A DNA stretch of 64,000 nucleotides from a bacterium (GTDB lineage: Archaea > Thermoplasmatota > E2 > JACPAO01 > JAHFTW01): the NCBI GenBank assembly GCA_040390065.1, contig JAZJZE010000005.1, positions 341,170-405,169 of the forward strand, given 5' to 3'. A model generated the notes under the pieces. It ran no database searches. It was not told the DNA's origin and saw only the letters and a program-made list of their open reading frames with translations. The position numbers and the translations under genes are program-made. This document shows, one piece after another, positions 2,418-51,368 of the stretch (position 1 is the stretch's first letter; each line of letters begins with the position of its first letter).

Positions 2418-4097
2418 ATGAATCCACCTGCCCACCCCTCCAAGGCCGAAGCCGTCAAGACGACAGGCCACGGGGAGGCGAAAGCGACGACCACGAAGCC
2501 GGCCGCCAAGGCCCCCGGCGGGCAGACCAACGGCGCCGGCCTCGACCCCGTGTCGCGTCTGCGGGAACGCAAGGCCCAGGCCATGATGGGAGGCGGGTTG
2601 GCGCGCATCGCGGCGCAGCACGAGAAGGGCAAATACACGGCCCGCGAACGCATCGATTTGCTCGTCGACCCGGGCACGTTTGTCGAGATCGACCCGTTCG
2701 TGCGCAGCCAAGCCACGGGTTTCGGCATGGACAAGCAGCGCTTCGACGGCGACGGCGTCGTGACCGGGTTCGGCTACGTCGACGGCCGGATCGTCTACAT
2801 CTACAGCCAGGACTTCACGGTCCTCGGCGGCTCGCTCGGCAACGCCACGGCGTCCAAGATCTGCAAGGTCCAGGACATGGCCGTGAAAAACGGCGCGCCC
2901 ATCATCGGCTTCAACGACTCCGGAGGCGCCCGAATCCAGGAAGGCGTTGCGGCGCTCGCCGGCTACGGGGATATCTTCTTCCGCAACGTCAACGCAAGCG
3001 GAGTCGTACCGCAGATCTCCGTCATCGTTGGCCCGTCCGCGGGTGGCGCAGTCTATTCCCCCGCCATCACGGACTTCGTCCTCATGGTCGAGGACACGTC
3101 CCACATGTTCGTGACCGGCCCCGACGTCGTGAAGACCGTGACGGGCGAGGATGCAAGCCAGGAAGAGCTCGGCGGCGCATCCGTGCACGCCGTCAAGTCC
3201 GGCGTCGCCCACTTCTCGGGCATCGACGAGGACGAGACCATCCAGATCCTGAAGCGCCTCATCGGCTACCTGCCGTCCAACAACCTGTCGGAACTGCCCG
3301 TGACGAAGCCGACGGACGACCGTTTCCGCATGGACGAGGCGCTGGACACGATCGTCCCGGACAACCCGAACAAGCCCTACGACATGCGCAACGTCCTCGA
3401 CATGGTCATGGACAAGGGCTCCTTCTTCGAGATCCAGCCGCGGTGGGCACAGAACGTCGTCATCGGCTTTGCCCGCCTCGATGGCTACCCCATCGGCGTC
3501 GTGGCCAACCAGCCCGCCGTCATGGCCGGCGCCCTCGACATCGAATCCAGCATCAAGGCCGCGAAGTTCATCCGTTTCTGCGACGCCTTCAACTTCCCCA
3601 TCGTGAGCTTCGTCGACGTCCCCGGCTTCCTGCCCGGACTGGGCCAGGAGCACGGCGGCATCATCCGCAACGGCGCCAAACTCCTCTACGCGTACTGCGA
3701 GGCAACGGTGCCAAAGTTGTGCGTCATCACGCGCAAATCCTACGGCGGCGCATACATCGTCATGTCGTCCAAGCACGTGGGCTCCGACATGAACTTCGCC
3801 TGGCCCGGCGCCGAGATTGCCGTCATGGGCGCGGAGGGCGCCGTGCAAATCCTCTACAAACGGGAACTCTCGAAGCTCGCGGAAGGCGACCCCGTCAAGG
3901 CCAAGGAGTTGCAGGCCACGTTCCAGAAAGAGTACCAGGAGAAGTTCGCGAACCCGTACGCGGCCGCCGAGCGCGGCTGGATCGACGACGTCATCGAACC
4001 CAGCGAGACCCGGCCCCGCCTCATCGCGGCGTTGTGGCCGCTCATCAACAAGCGCGAGCTGCGGCCCGCCAAGAAACACGGGATCATCCCGCTGTGA
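2418..4097 (+). CDS. pccB: Acyl-CoA (acetyl/propionyl-CoA) carboxylase carboxyltransferase subunit (PccB-like)
   Basis: GKYTARERI, QDFTVLGGSLG, DSGGARIQEG, VDVPGFLPG, RKSYGGAY, KKHGIIPL; start chosen by TATA spacing. Confidence 0.93.
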   Translation: MNPPAHPSKAEAVKTTGHGEAKATTTKPAAKAPGGQTNGAGLDPVSRLRERKAQAMMGGGLARIAAQHEKGKYTARERIDLLVDPGTFVEIDPFVRSQATGFGMDKQRFDGDGVVTGFGYVDGRIVYIYSQDFTVLGGSLGNATASKICKVQDMAVKNGAPIIGFNDSGGARIQEGVAALAGYGDIFFRNVNASGVVPQISVIVGPSAGGAVYSPAITDFVLMVEDTSHMFVTGPDVVKTVTGEDASQEELGGASVHAVKSGVAHFSGIDEDETIQILKRLIGYLPSNNLSELPVTKPTDDRFRMDEALDTIVPDNPNKPYDMRNVLDMVMDKGSFFEIQPRWAQNVVIGFARLDGYPIGVVANQPAVMAGALDIESSIKAAKFIRFCDAFNFPIVSFVDVPGFLPGLGQEHGGIIRNGAKLLYAYCEATVPKLCVITRKSYGGAYIVMSSKHVGSDMNFAWPGAEIAVMGAEGAVQILYKRELSKLAEGDPVKAKELQATFQKEYQEKFANPYAAAERGWIDDVIEPSETRPRLIAALWPLINKRELRPAKKHGIIPL

Positions 4098-4101
4098 GAC
4101 C

Positions 4102-4794
4102 ATGGTCCAGACCTCCCGCACGTTGCAGATCGAGTTGCCCCCGCCGTTCCCGGCAAACTTCCTCGATTACGTCACGGACGCAGCCCTCAGCCTGCCACAG
4201 ACCTCCGCCACCGTGGAGTTGACGCACGCACTCGCCGCCGTCGGCTACCGCTACCGCGCCATGCACGACGCTCAACGGATGCTGCAGGGCTCGCTCGCAG
4301 TCACAGTGCGCGGCCGCACTCCGGAGGAGAAATTCGTGCAGGACAGCCACCTTATGCACTTCCTGACCGACGGCCTGTCCTCCATCGAAGCCCTGGCTTT
4401 CTCCGCCTACCTCTGCGGCCACCTCACGAACGCGCCGCGCTTTCCCATCCACGCCGGAGCCTTGGCCAAGGTCACGCCGATGTCAGTCGAGAAGCTGTTC
4501 CGCCGCACCTTGCCCCAGGCCGGCCTCACGGCAAGCCTTCGCCGCTTGTGCCGCGCCCGCGAATTCGAGGAATGGAAATCCATGCGCACGACGCTCACCC
4601 ACCGCAGCCAACCCGCCCTTCAGCCCCACCACTTGCTGGTCAGTAAAGTGGCAGAGCTCGACGAAACCTGGCTCCGGCGCAAGCGCGGCTGGCTCGACGA
4701 CCAGATCCTCGTCCTTCTGCGTGAGCTGTTGTCCTTCATGGGCAAGGAAGTCCAGGTGCAGCACGCGCAACCGGTCCACGTGCTGGTGAACTAG
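4102..4794 (+). CDS. Hypothetical helical protein, possible HEPN-like domain (RxxxxH)
   Basis: ORF fills the gap between pccB and the PKS (its TAG abuts the PKS ATG); MRTTLTHR motif. Confidence 0.6.
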   Translation: MVQTSRTLQIELPPPFPANFLDYVTDAALSLPQTSATVELTHALAAVGYRYRAMHDAQRMLQGSLAVTVRGRTPEEKFVQDSHLMHFLTDGLSSIEALAFSAYLCGHLTNAPRFPIHAGALAKVTPMSVEKLFRRTLPQAGLTASLRRLCRAREFEEWKSMRTTLTHRSQPALQPHHLLVSKVAELDETWLRRKRGWLDDQILVLLRELLSFMGKEVQVQHAQPVHVLVN

Positions 4795-13934
<9,140 letters not shown>

Positions 13935-13938
<4 letters not shown>

Positions 13939-13988
13939 CGGCCGATACCGTCAAACGGCTCGCGCCGCTGGCCGGGGTGTCCCCATGA
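13935..13988 (+). other. 17-codon mini-ORF bridging PKS stop and biotin carboxylase start
   Basis: MTADTVKRLAPLAGVSP with an ATGA overlap at both ends. Confidence 0.4.
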
Positions 13989-15580
13989 GCACCTTCTCGA
14001 AGATCCTGGTCGCCAACCGCGGCGAGATCGCCTTGCGCATCATGCGCACCGCGCGCGAGATGGGCATCAAGACCGTCGCCATCCACTCCCCGCAGGATGC
14101 GCGGGCGCCGCACGTTCGCTTTGCCGAGGAAGCCTACCTCATGGGCAACGAGGCGACGGCGACGAACTACCTCAACATCCAGGGCATCGTCGACTTGGCC
14201 AAGGAGGTCGGCGCCGACGCCGTCCATCCCGGCTACGGCTTCCTCTCCGAGCGCGCCGAATTCGCGGAAGCGTTGGGCAAGGCCGGCATCAAGTTCATCG
14301 GGCCGCCCCCCGGACCAATCCGCATCCTCGGTGACAAGGTCGCATCCAAGGTCGCAGCGCGCAAGGCCAACGTGCCCGTCGTCCCCGGCAAGGACGAATT
14401 CGTCAGCACCCTCGACGAGGCCAAGGGCGTCGTCAAGCTCACCGGCTACCCCGTCATCATCAAGGCAGCCTTCGGCGGCGGCGGCATGGGCATGCAGGTG
14501 GTGCAGAACGAGGGCGAACTCGCCGCGGCGCTCGCGGCAACACAGCGCCAAGCCAAGGCAGCCTTCGGTCGCGGCGAGGTGTTCATCGAGAAGTTCATCC
14601 AGCGCCCGCGCCACATCGAGTTCCAGTTCCTCGCCGACGAGCACGGCAACGTCGTGCACTATGGCGAACGCGAATGCAGCGTGCAGCGGCGGCACCAGAA
14701 ACTCATCGAGGAGGCGCCAAGCCCAATCTTGCCCGCTTCCGAACGCGACCGCGTCGGCGCTGCCGTGTGCAAACTCGCAAAGGACGTCGGGTACTGGAAC
14801 GCCGGCACGGCCGAGTTCCTCTTCGACACGGACGCTCCCGGCGGCGGCCAGTTGTACTTCAACGAGGTCAACACGCGCCTGCAGGTCGAGCACCCTGTCA
14901 CGGAGCAAGTGTACGGCGTCGACTTGGTGCGTGAACAGATCCGCATCGCGCAAGGCGAGCCCCTCGGCTACGACCAGAAATGGGTCGACAGCCGCAGGCG
15001 GGGCTGGGCCATCGAGTGTCGCATCAACGCCGAGGACCCGCGCAACAAGTTCATGCCGACGCCGGGGACCATCCACCGGCACTTCCCGCCCAACGGCAAC
15101 GGCGTCCGGCTGGACACGTACCTGTACTCCGGGTTCACCGTGCCAAGCTCGTACGACTCGATGGTGGCGAAACTCATCACGTATGGTCAGGACCGAAACG
15201 AGGCCATCCGCAAGATGCGACGCGCCTTGGCCGAGTACGACCTCGGGAACCTCGTCACGAACCGCGAACTGCACCAAGTCATCTTCCACGACGAAGCGTT
15301 CTGCAAAGGGGAGATGACGACGCGGTTCCTGGACGACCGCAAGATCCTCGACAAACTCATGGGCGTGCAGGCCGCCGTCGACCACGCGACGAAGCAGAAA
15401 CTCGCGGCACTTGCAGCCGCACTTGCCCAGGAACCAGGCGGCATCGACTCCCTCGTCCAGAAATCCTACCAGTTCCAGCAAAGCCAGGCCAAGAATGTCG
15501 GCGTCGACGAATTCGGCCGGCGCAAACTCTCCGCGTGGGGCCGCCGTGGCCGCTACGAGGGCCAGGGCCGGGTGCACTGA
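13985..15580 (+). CDS. accC: Biotin carboxylase subunit of acyl-CoA carboxylase
   Basis: KILVANRGEIA, HPGYGFLSE, KAAFGGGGMG, RECSVQRRHQK, EVNTRLQVEH, YDSMVAKL. Confidence 0.95.
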   Translation: MSTFSKILVANRGEIALRIMRTAREMGIKTVAIHSPQDARAPHVRFAEEAYLMGNEATATNYLNIQGIVDLAKEVGADAVHPGYGFLSERAEFAEALGKAGIKFIGPPPGPIRILGDKVASKVAARKANVPVVPGKDEFVSTLDEAKGVVKLTGYPVIIKAAFGGGGMGMQVVQNEGELAAALAATQRQAKAAFGRGEVFIEKFIQRPRHIEFQFLADEHGNVVHYGERECSVQRRHQKLIEEAPSPILPASERDRVGAAVCKLAKDVGYWNAGTAEFLFDTDAPGGGQLYFNEVNTRLQVEHPVTEQVYGVDLVREQIRIAQGEPLGYDQKWVDSRRRGWAIECRINAEDPRNKFMPTPGTIHRHFPPNGNGVRLDTYLYSGFTVPSSYDSMVAKLITYGQDRNEAIRKMRRALAEYDLGNLVTNRELHQVIFHDEAFCKGEMTTRFLDDRKILDKLMGVQAAVDHATKQKLAALAAALAQEPGGIDSLVQKSYQFQQSQAKNVGVDEFGRRKLSAWGRRGRYEGQGRVH

Positions 15581-16071
15581 TGCGATACTCGTTCCAACTC
15601 AACGGGCGCCGCTTCATGGTCAACCTCGAGGAACATGCTGATGGCCCGCGCTACGTCGTCGAGGACGAGACGTTCGCCCCCAAGGTGGAAGCGCTCGGCA
15701 AGGGCCGCTACAAGGTGACAATCGGCCACCAGCGGTACGAGTTCAGCATCCACAACGGCATCGTCATGGAGGGCCCGCGCAACCTCGACCTAGAGGTCCG
15801 CCGCGAGCGCCCTGAACTGGCACGCAGCAAGTCCGGCGGCCGCAAGAACGACGGCAAGATCAGGCCCCCGATGCCCGGCAAGATCGTCGAAGTCAAGGTC
15901 AAGGAAGGCCAAGAGGTCGCGGAAGGCGACGTCCTCGTGGTGCTCGAGGCGATGAAGATGCAAAACGACCTCAAGTCGCCGATTGCAGGGACCGTCAAGC
16001 GCGTGCACGTGCAGGACGGGGCCAACGTCGAAGCGACGGCTGTGCTGTTGGAGATCACGCCCAAGGCCTGA
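15580..16071 (+). CDS. accB: Biotin carboxyl carrier protein
   Basis: PMPGKIV and LEAMKMQN biotinylation motif; TGATG overlap with accC. Confidence 0.92.
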   Translation: MRYSFQLNGRRFMVNLEEHADGPRYVVEDETFAPKVEALGKGRYKVTIGHQRYEFSIHNGIVMEGPRNLDLEVRRERPELARSKSGGRKNDGKIRPPMPGKIVEVKVKEGQEVAEGDVLVVLEAMKMQNDLKSPIAGTVKRVHVQDGANVEATAVLLEITPKA

Positions 16072-16174: not shown

Positions 16175-17788
16175 GTGTCGCGAACGCACCGTGGGCATGA
16201 GGCCATCAAGGTCGGGGAAGCGGCATCGCTTGGCGTCGCGGCACCTGCCCTGCTTGACGAAGAACCAGACACCGACGGCACGCAGGCCGTGCTGGTCGTC
16301 CATGGCATGGGTCAAGGCATCCGCCTGTCGACGCTCGAACTTCTGACGACGGCCCTGCAGTGCGCCGACGTGCGGCACCAGGAGGAACTCGGGGAGAAGC
16401 ACGCCGTGCCACCCGTCCCCGTGGCGAGGACCGTTCGCATCGGCGACACCGAACTGCAGCGCGCGGAATTTGCCATCCGTTCCATGGACCGGCATGGCAA
16501 CCCGGCATTGACCAACGTCCACGTGTACGAGGCATACTGGGCACCCGTCACCGAAGGCGCAACCAACCTGCGGGGCGTCATGGCATTCCTGTGGCGGGCC
16601 GGATGGACGGGCTTCTGGCGCTCGGCGCGTTTCCACCGCTGGATGTTCCAGCACCCCGTCCAATACCCCAAGTCCGTCGGATGGCTCATCCGGGCCGCGG
16701 TCCTCTTCACCCTGGCCATCCTGGGCTCGCTCGTCGCCCTGAACACCGTGATTGGCGTCCAGGCGGCCGCCATGTTCGTCCCCGGAGGCAACGGATGGCC
16801 GTCGCCGGCCCAGCTTCGCGACCTGAACTGGACCGCATTGGCAGCGACCTTCTCGATCTTGGCTTTCCTGGCCTTCGCCCTGCCAGCCCATTGGCTGCGA
16901 AAGGGTCGATGGCGACCCGCTGCGGCTGCCATCGGCTGGATTGGCCTCGTGATGTTCTACGTGACGGGCCTGGCCGTCATCGCGGCCGCCGCCGCCAGCA
17001 TCGCCTCGCTGGCTCGGGGTCCGGCTGGCCTGGGACTGTTCCCGCAAACGACGCCGTTGGCCCATCCCGGCCTCTGGCTGTGGCTGCTGTGGATCCCATT
17101 GGTCGTGGCCTCGTATTTCATCCGGCGCTGGATTGTCGATTACATCGGCGACGTCGCCGTGTACGTATCGCCGCAGTACCTGGACGCGTTCGACGAGAAG
17201 CGCGGGGAAATCAAGAAGCGCACCATGGCGGCCGCGGTCGCCCTGTACGCCGCTCGGACGAAAAACGGCGCCCGGCAGTACGAAAGCGTCGCCATCGTCG
17301 GACATTCACTCGGCTCCGTCATCGCCTACGATGCACTCAACGCAATGCTCGCCCGCGACGAGATCGACGGCCATCCGCACGCCGTCCTTGCCCGGACATC
17401 GATGTTCCTGACCTTTGGGTCCCCCCTCGACAAGACGGCGTTCTTCTTCGGTAGCCTGGGGCGTGGAAAGCACCACTTGCGAGAGGGCTTTGCGGCTGCC
17501 ACGCAACCCCTCATCCAGGATTACGCCACGTACCGCAAGGTTCCGTGGGTCAATGTCCATTCTCGCGCCGACATCATCAGCAACCAACTTTCCTTCTACG
17601 ATGTCATGCCCCCGAGGAATGACTTGCAATCGCGCAATCGTGTTCGAAACATTCGCGATCCCCAGGCGTTGGGCCCAATCATGGCGCACAACGAATACTG
17701 GGGAAATGCACGAGTCTGGGACGGACTCCACGTGGCGCTGCGTGGCGACGATGTTCGGGCCTGGGCGGATCCCCTGGCCTCGAAGTGA
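16175..17788 (+). CDS. Membrane-embedded alpha/beta hydrolase (start uncertain)
   Basis: VVHGMG, several TM helices, GHSLG nucleophile, TFGSP, NVHSRADII, AHNEYW. Confidence 0.75.
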   Translation: MSRTHRGHEAIKVGEAASLGVAAPALLDEEPDTDGTQAVLVVHGMGQGIRLSTLELLTTALQCADVRHQEELGEKHAVPPVPVARTVRIGDTELQRAEFAIRSMDRHGNPALTNVHVYEAYWAPVTEGATNLRGVMAFLWRAGWTGFWRSARFHRWMFQHPVQYPKSVGWLIRAAVLFTLAILGSLVALNTVIGVQAAAMFVPGGNGWPSPAQLRDLNWTALAATFSILAFLAFALPAHWLRKGRWRPAAAAIGWIGLVMFYVTGLAVIAAAAASIASLARGPAGLGLFPQTTPLAHPGLWLWLLWIPLVVASYFIRRWIVDYIGDVAVYVSPQYLDAFDEKRGEIKKRTMAAAVALYAARTKNGARQYESVAIVGHSLGSVIAYDALNAMLARDEIDGHPHAVLARTSMFLTFGSPLDKTAFFFGSLGRGKHHLREGFAAATQPLIQDYATYRKVPWVNVHSRADIISNQLSFYDVMPPRNDLQSRNRVRNIRDPQALGPIMAHNEYWGNARVWDGLHVALRGDDVRAWADPLASK

Positions 17789-18623: not shown

Positions 18624-19567
18624 ACACGACGAAAGCGCCTTGCGCCGTCCTGCTCGGACCACGCGGCGCGCCCTTCAAGCTCGAGCAAATGCAAGTGCCC
18701 GACGACCTCACACATGCCGAGGAAGCGTTGGTCGTGCGCCAAATGCGGCAAGACCTCCGGCAAGAGTTGCCAAGCCGTCTTCGGCCGGTCGAGGTGCTCG
18801 AGGATCTTGCGGCCGCGCTTCTCGTGTTTGGCGAGGTGGACGTCGAGAAGAGAGTCGGTCAAGGTGAACGGTTCATGGTGGCCCGGCAAGACGTCGCAGC
18901 CGACGAATGCCCGAAGACTGCGCAGCGTCCGGAGATACTGCCCATAGCGGCCGCGGTCGGCATCGAGGAGTTCGATGGCGTTCGACGTGATGTGTTCCAG
19001 CAGCGTGTCTCCCGAGAGCAATTGGTTGTCGTCGGTGAGGATGACGAGGGATCCGGGTGTGTGGCCGGGGGCGTGGAAGGCGGTGGCCTTCGTTTCGCCG
19101 AGCTGGATGCGCTCGCGCGACCGGACGTCGTGGCCGATCGGGCAGTCCTCCAGAAAGCCGTCCATGGCGGCGCCTTCCAGACGCATGACGGCGACGACAT
19201 CAGGCGGCGCGCCGTGGGCCGTCAGCGCCGTGGCAAAGGCGTCAAGGCGGCGAGGCGCATCCTTGCAGAACGTTTCGACGAAACGCGATTCCTCCTTCGG
19301 AGCCCAAAGCGTGGCTCCGAATTCCCGGCGCAGGCGAGCGGCGTTGCCGGCGTGGTCGACGTGGCCGTGCGTCACGACAAGGTGCAGGCCGTTGGCGTCG
19401 GCGCCCGAATCTCCCAGACCTTCGCGCAGCGCTGCGTACCCGTCGCGGGTTCCGATGCCGCAGTCGACAAGGCCAGTTGCATCTGCGCCGCGACCGGGGA
19501 AGACCCAGGCGTTGGCCGTGCGCAGCGGGAAGGGCAAGGGAATCGTGATGCGCGTCGGCGCCGCCAC
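18620..19567 (-). CDS. MBL-fold metallo-hydrolase
   Basis: PLPFPL..AN, VDCG, THGHVDH, PGHTPG, SGDTLL, LPGH. Confidence 0.88.
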   Translation of the reverse strand: MAAPTRITIPLPFPLRTANAWVFPGRGADATGLVDCGIGTRDGYAALREGLGDSGADANGLHLVVTHGHVDHAGNAARLRREFGATLWAPKEESRFVETFCKDAPRRLDAFATALTAHGAPPDVVAVMRLEGAAMDGFLEDCPIGHDVRSRERIQLGETKATAFHAPGHTPGSLVILTDDNQLLSGDTLLEHITSNAIELLDADRGRYGQYLRTLRSLRAFVGCDVLPGHHEPFTLTDSLLDVHLAKHEKRGRKILEHLDRPKTAWQLLPEVLPHLAHDQRFLGMCEVVGHLHLLELEGRAAWSEQDGARRFRRV

Positions 19568-19649
19568 ATCGGCACCGAACCGGCCGGGGCGGAAAAGCGC
19601 GCCCCTTGGCCGAAAAGGCAAAGGACTGCGCCGGAATGCTAGCCCGTCC

Positions 19650-20405
19650 ATGGACGGGCCACTTCGCCACGTCACGTTCCGCGTCAACCACGATTGCCCC
19701 ATGGCCGCCCTCAGCCGCGAGGTCCCCGCTGCAGACTTCCATTGCTGGAGCGGCCACCGCCTGGAGGTCGTGGAGGTGCGTTGTGCTTCAGCCGTCTGGC
19801 CCCTCGTGGCCCAAGCCGCGAAACGGCACTTGGCGCCCGAACGCATCCTGAGCGTGCCGGAAGGCGGCATCGTCGTGTGGGAGCCCGAGCGTCCGCGAGC
19901 GCATCCCGAGTCGAGCATCAGCCAGACGCTGGAGGCGCACCACGTCCTGTGGATGCAGCCCATGCGCGTGCAAGGTGGCTGGGAGCACTACGACGCCATC
20001 TCGTTTGCCTCTGGCGGCGACCAAGCGGCCCTCACTGCGCTGTCCAAGTCGTGGCCCACACAGGTCGTCCGCCGCCGCGACGTCGGTGCCGAAGACGTGC
20101 TGGCCTCGCTGTTCCTGTCGTTGCGGCCCGCCCTCGACGCACCCACGGACAAGCAGGCAGAAGCCCTCCTGGCGGCCAGCGCAGGCGGGTACTACCGCTC
20201 GCCGCGCAATGCCACGACGGCGCAACTCGCCCGGCGACTCGGCATCGGTCGAAGCGCGTTCGAGGAGCGCCTACGCGGCGGGGAGAACCGCGTCCTGGGA
20301 GCCGTCCTGCCGGCCTTGGAGCAGCAGCGCGCCTTGCATCCGGGGCCGAAGCGGAGAAAAGGCCGGCACACGTCGGCACACCGTGGACTTCAGCCTCAGC
20401 GATGA
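19650..20405 (+). CDS. Bacterio-opsin-activator-type (HTH_10) transcriptional regulator
   Basis: C-terminal [10 protein letters not shown]...[31 protein letters not shown]; N-terminal HDCP. Confidence 0.82.
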
Positions 20406-21522
20406 CGAGGCGCTGATTCGCAAGACCGTGCGAGAGCTTGCCCGCGGCCCTATTGCCTCGCGGGCTGCCGCCCTGGACCGTACAGGCACGTTCCCATCGG
20501 AGGCCATGCACGAACTGGCTGGGCTCGGCACGCTCGGTGCACAGATTCCGTCCGAATACGGCGGCTCGCCGGTCTCCAAGGTCGCGTACAACCTCATCCT
20601 CGAGGAGCTCGCCTGGGCCTGTGCGTCGACCAGTGTCACGTGGGGCGTGCACACGAGCGTTGCCGCCACGCCCATCGTGCAATGGGGTTCGCCCGCAATC
20701 AAGGAACGCTTCCTGCCGCGCCTGGCCTCTGGCGAGTGGATCGGATGCTTCGCCCTGACCGAGCCCGGCGCCGGATCAGACGTGGCGGCCATCACGACGA
20801 CGGCGATTCGCGAGCGCGACGATTACCGTATCAACGGCTCGAAGGTCTTCATCACCAACGGCAACCAGGCCGGCAGCGCCATCGTCGCCGCGAAGACGGA
20901 CCCCGCCGCCGGCCACCGGGGGATCAGCCTGTTTGCCGTGGAGACTTCCTGGAACGGGTTCGGACGGGATGGCCACGAAGACAAGCTCGGCCTCCGCGGC
21001 AGCGACACGGCCCGCCTCAGTTTCACGGACCTGATGGTGCCGAAAGAGAACCTTCTCGGTTCCCCCGGCGACGGCTTCAAGCAGCTCATGCACACTCTCA
21101 ACGGGTCGCGCATCGGCATCGCCGCGCAGGCTGTGGGCATCGCCCAGCGGGCCTTCGACGAAGCGACCTCCTACGCGAAGGAGCGGCGCCAATTCGGCAA
21201 GCCCATCGCTACGAACCAGGCAATCCAATGGAAACTTGCCGACATGGACGTGCGCATCGAAGCGGCGCGGCTCCTCGTCCTGCAAGCCGCGTCAGCGCTC
21301 GATATGGGCGACGTTCCGCCTGCCATGGCGTCGCGGGCCAAGCTGTTTGCCAGCGAGACGGCGACTTGGGTGACGCGTGAAGCCGTGCAGGTCCATGGCG
21401 GCAACGGGTACACCACCGACTACGTCGTGGAGCGCCTGATGCGTGACGCCAAGGTCACGGAAATCTACGAAGGCACGAGCGAAATCCAGAGGATGCTCAT
21501 CGCGCGCAGCCTGCTTGCGTAG
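20383..21522 (+). CDS. Acyl-CoA dehydrogenase
   Basis: [57 protein letters not shown]. Confidence 0.94.
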
Positions 21523-22507: not shown

Positions 22508-23893
22508 TTAGCGGGGAGGAGTTGGCGGTCGGCGCGTCGCCGGAGGTTTGCTGGCGGGCCGAACACCCGGGGGCCCAGCCGGCGGTGGCGGAATCCGGCC
22601 GAGCGGCCGGGCTGGAGGCGGTGCGCGCGGCGGTCCCGAAGGTCGGGGCGGTGGTCGGGGGGGCGGCGCCCAGGCGGCCGGCCATGGCGGACCCGGGGGA
22701 GGCGCACGCACGGGAGGGGCATACGCGCGCGGCGGGAGCGATGTCTGGTACGATGGAGGATATCCGGGCGGCAGCGGCATCCAGTAGTATCCTCCGGGGG
22801 ATTGCGGCGGCAACGCCGGCGGATAGAACGGGTGCACCGGGGCCTTGGCGCCGCCGCGGAAGATGAATATGGCCGCCACGCCGAGGCAGGCGAGGAGGCC
22901 CGCGATGCCGAGGACGATGCTGAGCAACCACGGGAAGGAGCTGCGCGTTCCCTGGACTTTGTAGGCTTGCGTCTCGACGGGGTTGCTCACGCCGCTGCGG
23001 GTCGCGGCGGACGCGCCGGTGTTTGGCGGGCGTACCACGGCGGCCGTCGACCCGCGAGTGGCGACGACGCATGGCGGGTAGAGCGTGTTGATGGCGGCGC
23101 GGTCGTCGGCGGATGGCGCGGGGCTGAAGTGTCCAAGGAACTCGTAGTTCATGACCGAATCCGCGTTGGCGGACGTATATCTCACGCCCGCCGCGGGAGA
23201 CAAGCAGTCGGGCTCGGCGCCGGCGGTCATGCGCTGCTCCTCGAACGGGTGGGCCAGGCCGAGGGCGTGGCCGAGTTCATGCGTCAACACCGACTTCAAT
23301 TCGGACAGCGACCAGCAGCCCGCCACCGTGGTCGTCGTGCAGCTGGTGCGGGCATAGACGAGCATGTCGCCGCGCCAGAACCGCCCTGAGGTGGCCTGCG
23401 TCCCGTTGGTGAAGGCGACCGTGGTGCCGTCGCGGTAGAGCATCTGCGTGACGGCCCCGACGCCCTGCCCCGTCGTCGAGGTCGATCCGGGGACGGCGAA
23501 GATGTCGAGTTCGGAGCCAGAGCCGACGCCGAATGGCCCGGACGAGTCGCGCGTCGCGTCGACGTCCGTCGAGACGTCCGTGAAGCGGATGCGGGGGTTC
23601 ACTTCCTCCCACGCGGCCATCGCGCCGTACAGGGCGGCAATCAGGTCCGAGCAACCGACGGAGGCGACGAAACCCTTGGCGAGGATCGTGCAGAAGTCTG
23701 GGTCGACGCTGAACTCGATGCCGCCGCCAAGTCCAGGGTCGCCGCCGCTGCGCATGGACGACTCGGTCGCCGCCCAGCGCTGCGCCTGCCAGGCCGCGTG
23801 TGGCGCACTCTGATCGGTGTCGGCAAAGAGCGCGAAGCCCTGCGCCGGCGGGGCCACGAGCAAGGCGCACAACGCCACGAGCCACCACCGCAT
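22508..23893 (-). CDS. Membrane-anchored matrixin-like (metzincin) zinc metalloprotease with Pro-rich tail
   Basis: Signal peptide, [16 protein letters not shown] Met-turn, C-terminal TM helix, poly-Pro tail. Confidence 0.82.
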
Positions 23894-24019
23894 CGCAGGT
23901 TCACCTCCGGTCGCCACAATAAGGGTTTGGCCCGGGGAGGCGGGGGAATGGCCGCGCCTGGCCGCCCCTGTCGCCACGGCTTTCAAATAGGCCCGTCCAT
24001 GGGCCGCATAGGGATTGCA

Positions 24020-26293
24020 TTGGCGACCGCCATCGAGTCCACGCCCGCCTTCGTCAAGTCCACGTATGACGCCATGTCGAAGCGCCTTGCCATTGTGCGC
24101 AAGCGCCTCGGCCGTCCGTTGACCCTCGCGGAAAAACTCGTGTACTCGCACCTGGACGACCCGGCGAAGGCGGAGCTCGTGCGTGGCAAGTCATACCTCG
24201 ACTTGCGGCCCGACCGCGTCACCATGCAGGACGCGACGGCGCAGATGGCCATCCTGCAGTTCCTGACGACGGGCAAGACGCAGACGGCGGTGCCGACGAC
24301 GGTGCACTGCGACCACCTGATTGCGGCCCAGGTCGGGGCCAAGGCCGACCTGCACGAGGCGACGACGGCGAACAAGGAGGTCTACGATTTCCTGCGTACG
24401 GCGTGCCAGCGCTGCGGCATGGGATTCTGGAAACCTGGCGCCGGCATCATCCACCAAGTCGTGCTCGAGCAGTACGCCTTCCCGGGCCAGATGGTCATCG
24501 GCACGGACTCGCACACTCCAAACGGCGGCGGACTCGGGATGTTCGCCTCCGGCGTGGGCGGCGCGGACGCGGTCGACGTCATGGCGGGTTTCCCGTGGGA
24601 AGTGTTGCATCCGACGGTCATCGGCGTTCACCTCAAAGGCAAGATGTCCGGCTGGACGGCGCCCAAGGACGTCATCCTCAAGCTCTGCGGCATCCTCACG
24701 GTGAAGGGCGGAACGAACGCCGTCATCGAGTACTTCGGCGACGGCTGCGCGAGCATCTCCGCGACTGGCAAGGCCACGATCACGAACATGGGGGCGGAAC
24801 TCGGTGCCACGACGTCGGTCTTCCCGCATGACGAACGCATGAACATCTATCTGCGCGCAACCGGGCGAAGCGAACTCGCGATGCTGGCGGACGCGGCGCA
24901 CAAGGAACTGCTGACGGCCGACGCCGAAGTCGCCGCAGACCCGAAGAACTTCTACGACCAAGTCGTCGAGATCGACCTCACGACCCTGGAGCCGCATCTC
25001 GTCGGCCCGCACACGCCGGACCTGGCGCGGCCCGTCTCGGAGGTCGCGAAGGCCGTGGCGACGGAGCATTACCCTGACCACATTTCCGTGACCCTGGTCG
25101 GTTCATGCACGAATTCGTCGTACGAGGACATGGAGCGCACGGCGGACATCGCGGCCCAGGCGTCGGCGCACGGGCTGAAGGTCGTGACCCCGCTCCTCGT
25201 CACACCCGGCTCTGAACAGGTGCATCTCACGATCCAGCGCGACGGCCAGATGGCAACACTCCAGAAAGTCGGCGCCACGGTCCTCGCCAACGCGTGCGGT
25301 CCATGCATCGGGCAATGGAACCGCCCCGAGTCCGAGACGAAGAAGGAGAACACCATCGTCACGTCGTACAACCGCAACTTCCCCAAGCGCAACGACGGTT
25401 CCGCCAAGACGCTCGCATTCATGGGCAGCCCCGAGATTGTCATCGCCTACGGTCTTGCGGGACGGCTCTCGTTCAACCCGATGAAGGACGAACTCACCGG
25501 CAGCGACGGCAAGAAGTTCCGACTCGTCGCACCGAAGCAGGCGCCCGAGGTCCCCGCGAAGGGCTTCGTCGCCGACCCGTCCGGCTACGTTGCGCCGCCG
25601 TCGGGCAAACCCGTCGAGGTCACCGTCGACCCCAAGTCGGACCGCCTGCAGCTGCTTGCGCCCTTTGGCGCATGGGATGGAAAGGACTTCACCGACCTGC
25701 CGCTTCTCCTCAAGGCCAAGGGCAAGTGCACGACGGACCACATCAGCCAAGCCGGCGTGTGGCTCAAGTTCCGCGGCCACCTCGACAACATCTCGAACAA
25801 CTGCTTCCTCGGAGCCATCAACGCCTTCACCGGCTCCGCCGGCGGCGGCAAGGACCAACTCGACGGCAAGACGAAACTGTTCCCCGAACTCGCCCGCAAC
25901 TACCAGAAGGCCGGCCTGCGCTGGATCGTCGTCGGCGACGAGAACTACGGCGAAGGCAGCAGCCGTGAGCACGCCGCCATGGAGCCGAGGCACCTCGGCG
26001 CGGCCGCCGTGATTGCCCGCAGCTTCGCCCGCATCCACGAGACCAACTTGAAGAAACAGGGCCTCCTTCCTCTGACGTTCGCGGACCCGAAGGACTACGA
26101 CAAGGTCCAGCAGGACGACCGCATCAGCATCACGGGATTGGCCGCGATGGCGCCGGCCAAGCCGCTCACGGTCATCCTCAAGCACGCCAACGGCAAGAGC
26201 GAGGCGATCCAAGTGCGGCACACGTTTTCCAAGGACCAGATTGAATGGTTCCGCGCGGGGTCGGCACTCAATCTGTTGCGGAGCAAGAAATGA
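24020..26293 (+). CDS. acnA: Aconitate hydratase, mitochondrial-type (start TTG 24020 or ATG 23999)
   Basis: [60 protein letters not shown]. Confidence 0.94.
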
Positions 26294-29883: not shown

Positions 29884-30819
29884 ATGCGCCTGTGGCCATT
29901 GGCCTTCCTCGTCGTGCTCGCCGTCCCCGCCGCCGCGGCCCAGCCAGCCCACCCCGTCGTCGTCGAAGTCGACCTGCTGGTCATCAGCTTCGGCAACTAC
30001 GACGCAAACAAGGGCACCTACACGATGGACCTGTACCTCCACCTGTCGTACGATGCCATGCACAGCGGCGGCATCGACCCGACGCATTTCGAGTTCGTCA
30101 ATGGGCGGGCCGCCAGCAAGGAACTGCAGTCCGACGACACCAACGCCACGACCGGCATCCGCGACTTGTGGTACAGGTTGCAGGTGAACCTGTACGCCGA
30201 GCCGCACTTCGAGAACTACCCGTACGACGCCCAAATCCTCAGCCTCCAACTCGAGGACGCCGTGCACACCGACAGTGAACTCGTCTACCGCGACGCCCTG
30301 ACGGGGACGGGCATCGACCCGGACATCCACGTCGCCGGCTGGCGCATCGACAATGCAGGAGCGACGGTGGCCCCGAAAGTCTACGCGTTCGGCGAGACCT
30401 ACAGCCGCTTCGCGTACCAGGTCCAGGTCAGCCGCGAACCATTGTCGGCGACCTTGCGCGCCTTCCTGCCGCCGCTGGCGTTCATGATCGTGAGCGCCTT
30501 GTCGTTCTTCCTGCACGCCTCGAAGGTCGCCCAGCGACTGACGCTCGGCACGTCGATGCTCATCGCGGCCGTGGGTTTCCACATCAGCCAGACCGTCTCG
30601 CTGCCGACCCTCGGCCGCTTGACCCTGTTCGACCAACTCATGCTGGCAGCCTACGCCTTCCTTGCTGCCAGTCTCGCCGTGACGGCGCTCGTGGCGTACA
30701 ACGAGGATTTCCGCAAGGACGACAAGACGGCAGCCCGGTCGACGCGGATCAACGTCCGCGGCGCCGTGCTTGCCGCCGCGCTTCCCGTGTTGGTCTTCCT
30801 GGCGCTTCGGTTCCTCTAG
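29884..30819 (+). CDS. Prokaryotic pentameric ligand-gated ion channel (GLIC/ELIC-like, Pro-loop)
   Basis: Signal peptide, beta-rich ectodomain, FENYPYDAQ Pro-loop, GW, pre-M1 R, four TM helices with M2 QRLTLGTSMLIA and M2-M3 LP..G.LT..D. Confidence 0.8.
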   Translation: MRLWPLAFLVVLAVPAAAAQPAHPVVVEVDLLVISFGNYDANKGTYTMDLYLHLSYDAMHSGGIDPTHFEFVNGRAASKELQSDDTNATTGIRDLWYRLQVNLYAEPHFENYPYDAQILSLQLEDAVHTDSELVYRDALTGTGIDPDIHVAGWRIDNAGATVAPKVYAFGETYSRFAYQVQVSREPLSATLRAFLPPLAFMIVSALSFFLHASKVAQRLTLGTSMLIAAVGFHISQTVSLPTLGRLTLFDQLMLAAYAFLAASLAVTALVAYNEDFRKDDKTAARSTRINVRGAVLAAALPVLVFLALRFL

Positions 30820-33122
30820 GACGCCGCCACACCGGCTTGGTGCGGCGCCATCGTGCTTGCCAGCGCACTCGGGTGCAGGCGGAGGAACCGCCCATCGCGC
30901 ACGGTGACGACGAGGCCGCCATCGATGAGGCGCTTGACGTGATACGTCACCGTCGATGCCTGCAGGCCGCTGCGCTGCGCGACCTCCTGCGATGTCAAGC
31001 CCGGTTGTGCCGCGACGACGGCGAGGATGGAGCGTGCGCCGTCGGACTTCATGGCGGGGGCGGCCGCAATCTGCATGCGTCCCGCGCCGCGCGGGAAGTA
31101 GCAAGTGTAGCCACCCGATGGCCGCGCCACGACCAGACCGGCCTCCGTGAGCTTCGACAAGTGATGGACGAGCGTGCCGTTTGGCAATCCGCTGCGCCGG
31201 CCAAGTTCCTGGAAGTGGATGCCAGCATCGGCTTCGATGAGCGCGGCCAGCCTGGCCCTATGCGGGTTGTCGAGGAGCTCCGGGTTGCGCAGGCGCGAGA
31301 ACAGGCCGATGGATCCACCCTTCAGGATGGGCCACACCCAGTAGAGCGCGCCGACGAACAAGCCAACGAGGCTGATGCCGGCGGCCTGCGCAGGGTTCGG
31401 CAACCATCCCGGGATGGAGTTCGCGGAGCCTGATGCGGGCGGAATGCCCGAGGGCTTGGTCGCCGCTGCCCCCTGCAGGCCGTTGCGCACACTGCTGTTC
31501 TCCTGCGAGGTTTCGAGGACGGACGGTTCGCCGTTCACCATCGCCAGAGCGCTCATGCGTGTTTCGGCGTCCTCGACGATGGTGGGCGGCGTCGTGGTGG
31601 TGTCGACGCGCCGGCCGGAGGAGGTCGACTCGACCCATCCGGCGCGCGTGAAGCTCACCGCAACCGAGCACGACACGGTCCCGTTCGTGAAGCGGAACCC
31701 GCAGAGTTCGGCGTATGCCAGGTCATTCGATGGATGGGCGCCGTCCGCCGCCGTCGCGTAGTCGCGCCAGCGGTCAGCCAACGAGACCCAAGTGGGCAGC
31801 TCCTTCGGCTCCGGGGGCACGGGCCAATCGAACGACGACGAACCGAAGTCGATGTAGGAGAACACGTGTTGCGGCATCGGCGGCGGCAAGCCGGTTGCAT
31901 GCAGGATGTAGACGATGACCGAGTAGCTGTCGTGGCCGTCGCCTTCATGGAACCACCAGGCGGGGCCACGCAGATCGACGCTGAACGCCACGGTCGTGTA
32001 GGCCTTCGGGTGCGCTGCCCTGAAATCGCGCAAGCCGGAGAACGACGGGTCCGTCATGGCTTGGTTCCACGCCTCCGAGGGCAACAGCGGGACGTTCAGC
32101 CCCTTGTCATCCGGTCCCCAGGGCTTGCTGGGCGCCATGACGAGGCCGGGGATGGGATCTCGCGGCGCTGGGCCCAGGGTCCTTGCCACCGTGCCGGGGG
32201 CGTAGCTGACCAGGACCATCGTGGCGTGGTCGCCGTTGTCGTCCGTGCTGCGGGCCTCCAACTTGAGAGGGGAGGAGATGCCCGAGGCAAACCACACGGA
32301 GACCTGGTACTCCTTCAGCGAGACCTCATCGGACGAGAAGTCCATGACGGCATCCGTCAAGACGCGGCTGGCATCGAAGCGCAAGGCGGGCCGACCGTCC
32401 AGCATGTCCAACGCCTTGGCTTGGTACGTCCCCGCCGGCAGGGTGGCAACCTCGCCAATCGTGCACGTGTCCTCCAGAAGGAAGGAGGCGCCGACGGCAA
32501 ACGTGCGGCCCTGCGCCGGGTTCACGAACAGGCAGAAGGCGTCGCCCACGCCGAAGGAGCGGCTCTGGCTCTTCTCATGCGTGACGATCTGGCTGTGGAT
32601 GACTTCCGGCAGGCCGCCGACCGTGAGAGGAGAGCCCAGCAGGCCGCCGTCCGTCACGTTGCTCGTCGTCCGGTTCGATTCCGATGCCCAGACCTGCGAC
32701 GAGCCTTGCTCGAACAGGATGGCGCCGTGGTACGATTCCCAAGGGTTGTGGTCGGGCTTGCCGTCGAAGTCGAAGTCGAACGTGTTGAGCTCGTCGTAGC
32801 GCATGCCTTCGACGAGCCCGCGGTCCGTGGCGTGCACGAGCCCATCCGCCATGCGCACGGGCTCGCCCTTGCCGAAGCTGAAGTTGGCAAACGGCGCAGC
32901 GCCATGGGCAAACGGTCCATCCAGCCAAGGACCCTTGAGGTCGAGCGAATAGCTGCCCTTGTCGCCAAGGTGCGCAACAGGAACCTGCACGTCGCGGCGG
33001 GCTGCGGACGTCTGCGAATTGGCATTGCCGGCGCCGACCACGCCGACGAGGATCGAACTCGTGAGGATGGCGATCAAGACGGCGGGCAGCAGGCGGCGGC
33101 CCAAGCGGGCAGGTCGGGTCAT
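30816..33122 (-). CDS. Membrane-anchored double winged-helix transcriptional regulator with large ectodomain (paralog 1)
   Basis: N-terminal hydrophobic signal, long ectodomain, TM, KGGSIGLFSR, NPHR, GIHFQEL, HHL, GYTCYFP, second HTH TVTYHVKRL. Confidence 0.85.
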   Translation of the reverse strand: MTRPARLGRRLLPAVLIAILTSSILVGVVGAGNANSQTSAARRDVQVPVAHLGDKGSYSLDLKGPWLDGPFAHGAAPFANFSFGKGEPVRMADGLVHATDRGLVEGMRYDELNTFDFDFDGKPDHNPWESYHGAILFEQGSSQVWASESNRTTSNVTDGGLLGSPLTVGGLPEVIHSQIVTHEKSQSRSFGVGDAFCLFVNPAQGRTFAVGASFLLEDTCTIGEVATLPAGTYQAKALDMLDGRPALRFDASRVLTDAVMDFSSDEVSLKEYQVSVWFASGISSPLKLEARSTDDNGDHATMVLVSYAPGTVARTLGPAPRDPIPGLVMAPSKPWGPDDKGLNVPLLPSEAWNQAMTDPSFSGLRDFRAAHPKAYTTVAFSVDLRGPAWWFHEGDGHDSYSVIVYILHATGLPPPMPQHVFSYIDFGSSSFDWPVPPEPKELPTWVSLADRWRDYATAADGAHPSNDLAYAELCGFRFTNGTVSCSVAVSFTRAGWVESTSSGRRVDTTTTPPTIVEDAETRMSALAMVNGEPSVLETSQENSSVRNGLQGAAATKPSGIPPASGSANSIPGWLPNPAQAAGISLVGLFVGALYWVWPILKGGSIGLFSRLRNPELLDNPHRARLAALIEADAGIHFQELGRRSGLPNGTLVHHLSKLTEAGLVVARPSGGYTCYFPRGAGRMQIAAAPAMKSDGARSILAVVAAQPGLTSQEVAQRSGLQASTVTYHVKRLIDGGLVVTVRDGRFLRLHPSALASTMAPHQAGVAAS

Positions 33123-39220: not shown

Positions 39221-39311
39221 GGGGGCAGACACTCCGGCCGGGGCTTAAGATGAGCCCGGTGCAAACGCTGACGACGGCGGCCAGCGGTGCAATCCTCGAA
39301 GAACTTTCTGG

Positions 39312-39812
39312 CTACAGTTTGTCCGCCGCATGTTCCCGACTGGCCTTGATGATGTCGGCGATGCGCTTGGCCTTCTCCATCTTCTGTTTCTCCTCGGCCG
39401 TGCTGGCGACGACGGCTGGCACGGGCGTCGGCTTGTTGTTGCGGTCGAGGGCGACGAACGTCATGTAGCAACTGGCCGTGTGCCGCACTTCGCCCGTCGT
39501 CGGGCTTTCGGCTTCGACGCGCACGCCGACGAGCATGCTGGTCTTGCCGACGTGGCGCACGGTGGCGTGGATCGTGAGGATGTCGCCGATGTAGACGGGT
39601 TCACGGAAATCCATGCGTTCGAGGCTCACCGTCACGACTTTGGGTACGCGGGCATGGCGCCACGCGGCGACGGCGGCGGCCTCGTCGATGTACTTCAGGA
39701 TGGCACCGCCGTGCACGTTGCCGTAGACGTTCGCCTCGTCCGGCGTCATGAGCTTCGACATCGTCGTCGCGGAACGGCTCATGGGGACGGCTTCGAGCTC
39801 GGCCTTGGGCAT
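39312..39812 (-). CDS. Hotdog-fold acyl-CoA thioesterase (YciA-like)
   Basis: P.EANVYGNVHGGAILKYIDE, VVTVS, F.EPV..GD, GKTSM.V.V, TFVALD. Confidence 0.9.
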   Translation of the reverse strand: MPKAELEAVPMSRSATTMSKLMTPDEANVYGNVHGGAILKYIDEAAAVAAWRHARVPKVVTVSLERMDFREPVYIGDILTIHATVRHVGKTSMLVGVRVEAESPTTGEVRHTASCYMTFVALDRNNKPTPVPAVVASTAEEKQKMEKAKRIADIIKASREHAADKL

Positions 39813-39973
39813 GCATCGAGCAGCGGGAGCAGCGATTTCAGGGTGTCCCTCGCCCCAACACGGCATGAAGACGGTGGGCGTCTCCGTTTGCGCCCTGTAG
39901 GGAAAGTCCAGCAGGAATCCGAGGGCAAAGAGGAGGAGGGAATCATGCGAGTCCGTTGGCACCGGCGGAGGGC

Positions 39974-40201
39974 TTAGCCCTGGACGCAGACGCCGAAGAC
40001 GTATTCGCGGCACGGGTTGCCCTGCTGGCAGTACGAAACGCCGTAGCCACACGTGCAGTGGTCGTCGATGATGCCGTCGCACGGATTGTCGGCGCCGAGG
40101 TGTTGCCCAGCGATCTCGAACGCGCTGGCCGTGGGCGTAAGCACTGTCGCCATCATGACCATCGAGGCTGCCAAAACGAGCATTTTAGTGGTTGTCTTCA
40201 T
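39974..40201 (-). CDS. Small secreted cysteine-rich peptide (75 aa; 48-aa mature part with 6 Cys)
   Basis: GGTGA SD, signal peptide ending ASA, mature FEIAG...CDGIIDDHCTCGYGVSYCQQGNPCREYVFGVCVQG. Confidence 0.75.
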   Translation of the reverse strand: MKTTTKMLVLAASMVMMATVLTPTASAFEIAGQHLGADNPCDGIIDDHCTCGYGVSYCQQGNPCREYVFGVCVQG

Positions 40202-41652: not shown

Positions 41653-41708
41653 ACCGGGCTTCCAGGTTTTCCCCAACCTTCATCTATTCCCCCCTGTCAG
41701 GGCCAATC

Positions 41709-42951
<1,243 letters not shown>

Positions 42952-42977
<26 letters not shown>

Positions 42978-48232: not shown

Positions 48233-48237
48233 GGATT

Positions 48238-48660: not shown

Positions 48661-48702
48661 CGATGCGCCACGCGCCGAGCCCTGGGGCCAAGTGGCGTGC
48701 GG

Positions 48703-51366: not shown

Positions 51367-51368
51367 GC

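Follow-up and report, generated by a model that had tools for sequence, protein, structure and literature searches.

The window analysed here, a stretch of 64,000 nucleotides (nt) of contig JAZJZE010000005.1, contains at positions 2418-16071 five genes, all on the + strand, that encode a carboxyltransferase (CT), a protein that we denote orfX, a megasynthase, a biotin carboxylase (BC) and a biotin carboxyl carrier protein (BCCP), as delineated by listing of the open reading frames (ORFs) and by domain scans. We present evidence that these genes probably constitute a chromosomal operon of a Thermoplasmatota archaeon which couples a three-subunit acyl-CoA carboxylase to an iterative megasynthase of the Type R class, with a long-chain lipid of the fatty-acyl type as the putative product. 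Coordinates refer to the forward strand of the window, and residue numbers to the megasynthase protein unless stated otherwise. The features are the following.

2418..4097, + strand: carboxyltransferase (beta) subunit of a biotin-dependent acyl-CoA carboxylase, pccB/AccD-like (PF01039, E 2.7e-195; TIGR01117)
4102..4794, + strand: orfX, 230 aa, all-alpha, unnamed family, Rx4H motif (no Pfam or NCBIfam match)
4795..13938, + strand: megasynthase, 3047 aa, iterative PfaA-like type I, with the order ketosynthase (KS1)-acyltransferase (AT)-second ketosynthase (KS2)-three acyl carrier proteins (ACPs)-ketoreductase (KR)-dehydratase (DH)-4'-phosphopantetheinyl transferase (PPTase) (Pfam, NCBIfam, 28 full-length homologues)
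4816..6348, + strand: KS1, residues 8-518, Cys223/His357/His401 (PF00109, PF02801, PF16197)
6655..7611, + strand: AT, residues 621-939, with Ser720 in GHSLGE, Arg745, and His825 in AAFHS (PF00698, E 5.6e-46)
7972..9504, + strand: KS2, approximately residues 1060-1570, Cys1311-His1459-His1499 (second PF00109 and PF02801 stretches)
9757..10695, + strand: three tandem ACPs, approximately residues 1655-1967, motif EADLGIDTVKQAELF (PF00550, E 1.8e-18)
11365..12033, + strand: KR, residues 2191-2413, GGAQGIT, Ser2368/Tyr2381/Asn2385 (PF08659, E 1.9e-30)
12313..13122, + strand: double-hotdog DH of the polyketide synthase (PKS) type, residues 2507-2776, His2526-x3-Gly-x4-Pro, Glu2698, Gln2702 (PF21089, PF14765)
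13369..13785, + strand: fused Sfp-type PPTase, residues 2859-2997 (PF01648, 45.8 bits against a cutoff of 25; PF17837)
13985..15580, + strand: biotin carboxylase subunit (PF00289, PF02786, PF02785; NF006367)
15580..16071, + strand: BCCP, 163 aa, AMKM biotinylation motif (PF00364, E 3.9e-20)

The sequence-only reading of this stretch had described five co-oriented genes that abut, overlap or lie within 50 nt of each other, and both its coordinates and its description are correct: the junctions, read from the sequence, give gaps of 4, 0, 46 and −1 nt. The TGA of the carboxyltransferase gene (4095-4097) is followed by the ATG of orfX at 4102, the TAG of orfX (4792-4794) by the ATG of the megasynthase at 4795, and the TGA of the megasynthase (13936-13938) by the ATG of the biotin carboxylase at 13985; the TGA of the latter (15578-15580) and the ATG of the BCCP at 15580 overlap by one base. 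Third-position GC is 0.83-0.90 for each reading frame and, because of the domain E-values found, chance is ruled out as an issue for the operon genes. The Pfam and NCBIfam matches equally bear out that the genes form a compact operon, with an ACP-dependent type I megasynthase, complete with its own PPTase domain, placed between the subunits of a carboxylase.

The components of a biotin-dependent carboxylase, namely an ATP-grasp BC, a BCCP with the biotinyl-lysine motif AMKM and a CT, were all recognised from Pfam, NCBIfam and the sequence itself. The PF01039 match spans residues 97-587 of the 589-aa CT reading; the stop of this gene ends at 4097, and the start is uncertain between TTG 2328, ATG 2367 and ATG 2418. 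Against TIGR01117, the CT scores 781 bits, under the cutoff of 998.8; the BC exceeds the cutoff of NF006367 (603.6 against 597 bits), and the match of the BCCP to NF004173 covers profile positions 7-152 of 153. Within approximately 2387-2417, a TTTACATAT element lies in GC-rich surroundings, 22 nt before ATG 2418; speculatively, this could be an archaeal TATA box that gives rise to a leaderless pccB transcript. Scans of the window for sigma-70 promoters (0 sites against 1.3 expected) and for terminator-like sites (7 against 11.9 expected) were uninformative.

The megasynthase ORF is uninterrupted over 3047 aa, and its domain order was set by Pfam and NCBIfam matches together with alignment A1, which comprises 29 sequences (the window protein and 28 homologues). 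The catalytic residues of KS1, KS2, AT, KR and DH are invariant in A1 and kept in 31/31 archaeal rows; with few exceptions, the KS, AT, KR and DH residues are found also in 8 rows of the Elusimicrobia type and in 32 rows from other bacteria. Specifically, the Cys-His-His triad of KS2 is complete in all 31 archaeal, all 8 Elusimicrobia-type and all 32 other bacterial rows; Thiolase_N and ACP_syn_III matches at residues 1301-1344 fall within this domain. The AT reaches 231.9 bits with TIGR00128 (fabD), under the cutoff of 260.9, and its GHSLGE and AAFHS motifs are what we take to be the malonyl type. Three ACPs were counted in 24 of the 29 archaeal proteins, and four ACPs in the other 5 proteins. 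Two PPTase motifs, GIDLE (D2933, E2935) and WAAKEAALK (K2974, E2975), are invariant in A1 and presumably represent the metal- and CoA-binding Asp/Glu and the W/FxxKE(A/S)xxK signature of Sfp-type enzymes. The PF01648 domain is listed in 28/28 archaeal homologues, and the PPTase domain in the window is 37% identical over 174 aa to a separate PPTase gene located 3' of one bacterial copy. No enoyl reductase (ER), methyltransferase or thioesterase domain was detected in the megasynthase with Pfam and NCBIfam, and a search of PDB sequences with the whole synthase returned generic PKS and fatty acid synthase KS-AT matches, nothing more specific.

When genomes were scanned with A1, 591 relatives were confirmed, and 80 loci (L001-L080) were kept. 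Five of these have titles beginning with Thermoplasmat (hereafter Thermoplasmat- labels), and the remaining 75 are bacterial, from Chloroflexota, Acidobacteriota, Actinomycetota, Myxococcota, "delta proteobacteria", Elusimicrobiota, Gemmatimonadota and others. The matches in bacterial loci are full-length where the contig permits, with a best-segment identity of 32-53%. A bacterial class of this kind has been catalogued as the "Type R secondary lipid synthase" (Shulse & Allen 2011, PLoS One 6:e20146, PMC3098273). According to that paper, the class consists of KS, malonyl-acyltransferase (MAT), chain length factor (CLF), 3-6 ACPs and KR, in this order, with a PPTase encoded directly downstream; the hosts are Koribacter, Solibacter, Elusimicrobium and Roseiflexus, the product is uncharacterised, and an acetyl-CoA carboxylase (ACC) gene in the Koribacter cluster is already pointed out. 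The word "archaea" appears nowhere in the paper. Judging by architecture and taxa, the window synthase fits this catalogued, uncharacterised class, and our trees took relatives from the same families and phyla. As for the concern, raised in the sequence-only reading, that the cluster might match a characterised pathway, the family thus turns out to be catalogued but not characterised.

The host is very probably a Thermoplasmatota archaeon, in accord with the archaeal host that had been proposed. A search with the C-terminal 598 residues of the synthase yielded 67 proteins, and the best 28 homologues (P0002-P0029) are ~2750-3180 aa long and 58-83% identical to the window protein over the full length. 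Taxon names are attached to 7 of these 28, and all 7 read Thermoplasmatota or Thermoplasmata archaeon; P0006 and P0027 are identical, in the tree, to L001 and L003, both with Thermoplasmat- titles. The isocitrate dehydrogenase (ICDH) gene, which is unlinked and lies 28 kb away at 41748-42974, gives the same signal: its best 47 matches are 77-92% identical, and 12/12 of those with a taxon label are Thermoplasmat-; nine of the contigs that bear ICDH matches agree in length with contigs of synthase matches. Among the best 49 pccB matches, the labels are 8 Thermoplasmat- and 1 Halobacteriales.

If the contig were bacterial or chimeric through mis-binning, there would be no archaeal synthase to explain, and several observations lend themselves to this alternative. 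No tRNA, rRNA or other Rfam match and no archaeal informational gene was found within the window, the synthase family is entirely bacterial outside the archaeal clade, and ICDH matches with bacterial labels (Gemmatimonadetes, 75-77% identity) begin at 77%, just under the Thermoplasmat- matches. Nevertheless, we consider this explanation quite improbable, given that the labelled close matches of synthase, ICDH and pccB are all archaeal, that Thermoplasmat- labels of close matches occur on contigs reaching 585 kb, and that a long, fully supported branch parts the archaeal clade from every bacterial row. Moreover, GC is even over the cluster and its flanks (0.64-0.70), and the window encodes three paralogues of 727-768 aa on the − strand (30816-33122, 34731-36944 and 37049-39232) with C-terminal PF24266 HTH_HVO_0163_N and winged-helix domains. 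L001 shares the NifU and FeS-assembly genes that are located 5' of pccB in the window. A haloarchaeal host was considered as well and rejected: 12 window proteins have 5-12% Asp plus Glu and a pI of 5.3-9.95, and so are not acidic.

The synthase tree (FastTree; 74 rows, 2241 columns, with the ACP repeats and the PPTase region removed) unites 31 archaeal rows in one clade with a support of 100 and a stem length of 0.47, and this clade is internally about as deep as bacterial groups at the phylum level. The most likely scenario, with the direction suggested by the distribution of the family, is that the synthase entered the Thermoplasmatota lineage once, long ago, from bacteria, and was retained thereafter. 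The carboxyltransferase appears to have a different history. In a tree of 46 pccB rows (IQ-TREE, quick mode), the window sequence belongs to a clade of 11 rows (support 100) that is nested among generic pccBs; the set holding it comprises 33 rows (support 96), with labels including Methanobacteriota, Kariarchaeaceae, Zixibacteria and Anaerolineae, and leaves out the synthase-linked pccBs of Chloroflexota and Elusimicrobiota. Co-transfer of pccB together with the synthase was accordingly rejected. Following the acquisition, we infer, the PPTase gene was fused to the synthase, and the latter became associated with a carboxylase of other ancestry.

Gene context was compared across the 80 loci by tblastn and crude ORF clustering. 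The counts for carboxylase and PPTase genes (n = 37) pertain to bacterial loci that do not belong to the Elusimicrobia-type group and have 5 kb or more on each side, and those for an upstream acyl-CoA dehydrogenase (ACAD; n = 55) to bacterial loci, again without this group, that have 2 kb or more upstream. Carboxylase genes are found near the synthase in 28/37 bacterial loci, in 2/2 Elusimicrobia-type loci and in 2/2 archaeal loci in addition to the window. The order is synthase-PPTase-pccB-BC-BCCP in Chloroflexota and synthase-PPTase-pccB in the Elusimicrobia-type group; Acidobacteriota and Actinomycetota encode a fused ACC of ~1870 aa (BC-BCCP-ACC_central-CT); and the archaeal order is pccB, a variable slot, the synthase-PPTase fusion, BC and BCCP. 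Synteny across archaeal genomes, a check that had been suggested at the outset, shows pccB directly 5' of the synthase in all four archaeal loci that extend upstream (L001-L004), and BC-BCCP 3' of it in both that extend downstream. By tblastn, the window carboxyltransferase is 72-81% identical to the gene directly 5' of the synthase in L001-L004, and the biotin carboxylase is 83% (L001) and 70% (L003) identical to the gene 3' of it. A PPTase gene accompanies the synthase in 35/37 bacterial loci and is fused to it in all archaeal copies. In L003, a BioY biotin-transporter gene (19545-20423) sits between the synthase and BC.

The proposal of a host-integrated pathway thus gains support in that the synthase-carboxylase linkage is kept across a deep archaeal clade; the pairing itself is real in the window but is not peculiar to archaea, as the bacterial and Elusimicrobia-type counts attest. 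Alternatively, the carboxylase could be a housekeeping enzyme of propionate or methylmalonyl-CoA metabolism, in the operon of which the synthase landed without functional coupling. Such an origin would accord with the separate ancestry of the CT, which clusters with generic archaeal and bacterial pccBs and not with the synthase-linked bacterial CTs, and with the best NCBIfam model of the CT, which is of the pccB/methylmalonyl (mmdA/pccB) type; the preference for acetyl-CoA or propionyl-CoA is a prediction only. However, the flanking order is constant over an archaeal clade in which the identity of the synthases falls to 58%, and at least 12 pccB matches lie on contigs equal in size to synthase-match contigs. 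Furthermore, bacteria place three forms of carboxylase beside the synthase (pccB-BC-BCCP, pccB alone and the fused 1870-aa ACC), and no mutase or epimerase gene was found in the window with Pfam and NCBIfam scans. On balance, we regard an uncoupled housekeeping carboxylase as improbable.

The most unusual feature of the synthase is found in its carrier domains. In all three ACPs, threonine (Thr1692, Thr1816 and Thr1930; codons 9868-9870, 10240-10242 and 10582-10584) replaces the phosphopantetheinyl serine, so that these domains match PF00550 (67 bits) yet lack the conserved serine of the (D/E)xGxDS(L/I) motif. Across the family, bacterial and archaeal, the motif reads EADLG(I/V)DTVKQAE. It is present 1-6 times per locus in the 65 of 80 loci that span the ACP region, and the residue is threonine every time under a search pattern that admitted Ser, Ala or Cys at this position; the same Thr-type motif occurs in 66 of the first 67 database proteins. 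In alignments with six solved carrier domains, HMMER puts this threonine on the D-S serine of PigH (both domains), 6lvt, 4dxe, 2lte and CurA 2liu. No report of Thr-linked phosphopantetheine was found in a literature search that covered the main texts of openly accessible papers.

The simplest reading of the family-wide threonine, as far as sequence comparison goes, is that phosphopantetheine is attached to it by the dedicated PPTase. The opposite view, namely that the synthase is an inactive relic with ACPs that cannot be armed for want of serine, draws on the presence of threonine at the attachment site of all three ACPs. Yet threonine occupies every motif copy across the family, the 9-kb ORF has stayed intact with all its catalytic residues unchanged in archaea and under at least 8 bacterial phylum labels, and the synthase always comes with a PPTase. 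For these reasons, loss of function is unlikely, and, as an explanation of the window, we regard an inactive relic as extremely improbable. A more far-reaching proposal is that the whole family holds its growing chains on Thr-phosphopantetheine through the co-travelling PPTase, and that the carboxylase-fed archaeal version, with its fused PPTase, would give an archaeon an ACP-dependent route to acyl lipids of the bacterial style; this we put forward tentatively, as a possibility that falls short of an even chance.

Under the model that we favour, the BC, BCCP and CT would convert acetyl-CoA to malonyl-CoA, as the respective enzyme families suggest, and the C-terminal PPTase domain would arm the three tandem ACPs, necessarily at the invariant threonine. 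The AT would load malonyl units, KS1 and KS2, both of which are complete, would extend the chain iteratively, and KR and DH, given their recognisable domains and residues, would be expected to convert each beta-keto group to an enoyl group. Saturation of the chain would depend on a reductase encoded elsewhere.

A candidate for such a reductase is apparent in bacteria. An ACAD of ~560 aa with a C-terminal extension is encoded directly 5' of the synthase in 47/55 bacterial loci (at ~8160-9950 in L005, L023, L027, L038, L052, L057 and others). EtfA (electron transfer flavoprotein) is present in 12/37 bacterial loci, and in Acidobacteriota the genes further upstream include EtfB, EtfA, an FeS/CCG oxidoreductase, a wax ester synthase/diacylglycerol acyltransferase (WS/DGAT) and an AdhE-like gene. 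The upstream ACAD may be a flavin-based substitute for the absent ER in these bacterial relatives. The ACAD encoded in the window at 19975-21522 was tried as an orthologue of the synthase-linked ACAD and rejected, being 36% identical to it and devoid of the C-terminal extension. Because of this bacterial context (ACAD/ETF, WS/DGAT) and of the tandem ACPs, we lean towards a long-chain fatty-acyl "secondary lipid" as the product, rather than a free conjugated polyene.

The latter is the product expected if the megasynthase is a synthase of specialised metabolites similar to the enediyne synthase PksE, making a conjugated polyene that might serve as a pigment or an antioxidant, in place of a fatty-acyl lipid. 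This is a serious rival to the fatty-acyl reading. The domain order equals what we take to be that of PksE, including the C-terminal PPTase, save for KS2 and the extra ACPs, and there is no ER in cis or conserved nearby. On the other hand, tandem ACPs and a second KS belong to Pfa-type lipid synthases, and tandem-ACP synthases are regarded as makers of fatty acyl products, according to the Type R paper (PMC3098273). The bacterial homologues with 39-49% identity adjoin ACAD/ETF, WS/DGAT and alcohol-forming reductase-like genes; furthermore, the Pfam scan showed neither a hotdog thioesterase nor an enediyne cassette adjacent to the operon, the nearest 4HBT gene being 25 kb off (39312-40082). A polyene synthase is accordingly an unlikely alternative, albeit one to be taken seriously.

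Several points weigh against our interpretation of the operon as a source of fatty-acyl lipid in an archaeon, in addition to the mmdA/pccB-type model of the CT and the lack of RNA and informational genes in the window. Taken literally, the encoded chemistry yields a polyene or a hydroxy/enoyl chain: apart from the missing ER domain, the surroundings of the archaeal copies contain no conserved ER-like gene, and the synthase-linked ACAD is present in 0/6 archaeal sequences including the window, as well as in 0/10 Elusimicrobia-type loci. Neither the synthase nor its conserved neighbourhood supplies a thioesterase or acyltransferase for release, so that the description of the system as "self-contained" is one part of the sequence-only reading that we cannot uphold. 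A carrier role for ACPs without the defining serine calls for an unprecedented attachment to threonine or for something not understood. In the synthase tree, the branch joining archaea and the Elusimicrobia-type group (support 86) was drawn open, the program warned of long branches that meet there, and any statement on the sister group, the root and the donor lineage is tentative. The host call rests on the labels of related metagenome-assembled genomes, and 19 of the 28 close homologues carry no taxon label. Finally, expression of the operon is a prediction. With these points taken into account, the carboxylase-coupled fatty-acyl lipid operon is still, in our assessment, the probable reading.

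The small gene orfX, which lies between pccB and the synthase, was listed as an unknown ORF of the cluster in the earlier description. We found no Pfam match to it even at E ≤ 5 and no NCBIfam match, no PDB sequence match and 0 PDB fold matches at E ≤ 0.001. The family comprises 421 representatives at E ≤ 1e-3, with R162 invariant and H167 nearly invariant in its alignment (A2), and the AlphaFold2 model has a pLDDT of 91; orfX is a real gene. However, tblastn found no counterpart in any of the 80 loci, and the spacer between pccB and the synthase measures 123 nt in L003 and, devoid of any similar ORF, 675 nt in L001; in L002 it extends to ~2.6 kb and contains other ORFs, and in L004 it spans 800 nt and contains a different ORF of 259 aa. 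Thus, the slot holds other genes or none in all four archaeal relatives whose loci include it, a role as a pathway enzyme was rejected, and orfX is a passenger in a variable slot. A HEPN lead was not confirmed (a weak PF18730 match in 1 of 48 family members, and a weak HEPN_Cthe2314 lead in an Atlas search).

On the other side of the operon, 3' of the BCCP gene, an ORF of 529 aa (16199-17785) encodes a membrane-spanning, alpha/beta-hydrolase-like protein with a GHSLG motif and sub-threshold lipase and esterase matches, possibly a release enzyme or lipase. Next come genes for an enoyl-CoA hydratase, a metallo-beta-lactamase-fold protein (encoded in the reverse orientation) and a generic ACAD. 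L001 and L003 have no counterpart to any of the four, according to tblastn comparisons with the hydrolase-like ORF, hydratase and ACAD and to a Pfam scan of the flanks of these loci.

Elsewhere in the window, the aconitase (23798-26293) matches the mitochondrial-type model TIGR01340 with 1088 bits (cutoff 825); together with the relatives of ICDH (41433-42977), this suggests the presence of bacterial-like central-metabolism genes in this lineage. An ORF at 29683-30819 matches the transmembrane region of neurotransmitter-gated (Cys-loop) ion channels (PF02932; TIGR00860, E 1e-17), which is unusual for an archaeon. A fumarase/aspartase gene separates the first of the HTH_HVO_0163_N paralogues from the second, and pairs of ArsR-type helix-turn-helix and AHSA1/SRPBCC genes recur at 47660-51426 and 54274-54741. 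Towards the end of the window, at 60001-64000, GC drops from ~0.66 to 0.59-0.62, with few confident ORFs.

Archaeal membranes are isoprenoid and, to our knowledge, archaea are generally held to lack ACP-dependent machinery for the synthesis of fatty acids or polyketides. Against this background, the present results point to a deep Thermoplasmatota clade that retains an intact 9-kb lipid megasynthase of the bacterial type, with its own PPTase and a supply of malonyl-CoA. If the synthase does give these archaea an ACP-dependent route to acyl lipids of the bacterial style, the lipid divide would have been breached in nature, and the threonine that is invariant across the family would, if used, represent novel carrier-protein chemistry. 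Since the operon can be cloned, it becomes concretely testable whether acyl lipids are made by some archaea, and for what purpose. Beyond archaea, the analysis draws attention to a large family with an uncharacterised product in Acidobacteriota, Chloroflexota, Actinomycetota, Elusimicrobiota and other phyla.

Compared with known systems, the carboxylase resembles that of Metallosphaera and Sulfolobus in having a separate BC, a small BCCP that is extended at the N-terminus and a pccB-like CT, and differs from it in that its genes are split by a 9-kb synthase. The megasynthase shares with enediyne PksE (SgcE/CalE8) the iterative KS-AT-ACP-KR-DH order, the C-terminal PPTase and the lack of an ER; unlike PksE, it possesses an extra KS2 and three ACPs as against a single one. 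With the PfaABCDE systems that produce eicosapentaenoic and docosahexaenoic acids, it has in common the PfaA-type order of KS, AT, tandem ACPs, KR and DH and a dedicated PPTase. In contrast to these systems, however, it scores 948 bits with TIGR02813 (omega_3_PfaA), under the cutoff of 1010, and its ACP motif carries threonine, not serine; no PfaB, PfaC (KS-CLF and two FabA-type DHs) or PfaD ER was found in the window (46 ORFs searched with Pfam, and 25 reading frames with NCBIfam).

With Type R, the agreement is as follows. The window synthase is a single pfaA homologue with a KS, an AT, a second KS-like domain, three ACPs and a KR, and has full-length homologues with 39-49% identity in Korobacteraceae, Elusimicrobiaceae and Chloroflexota. 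Both systems have a PPTase of their own, fused to the C-terminus of the synthase in the window and encoded by a downstream gene in Type R. The differences are that the host is archaeal; that the carboxylase is split, with pccB 5' and BC-BCCP 3' of the synthase, and its CT is of separate ancestry; that the upstream ACAD found at most bacterial copies is missing; and that a PKS-type DH follows the KR and a full Cys-His-His triad is present in the "CLF" (KS2), both of which lie outside the 2011 description. The literature search described above yielded nothing on a type I synthase in Thermoplasmatota and no characterised Type R product. The synthase is an archaeal variant of a catalogued but uncharacterised bacterial family, not an archaeal invention, and this archaeal form is set apart by its fused PPTase, the separate ancestry of its CT and the absent upstream ACAD.

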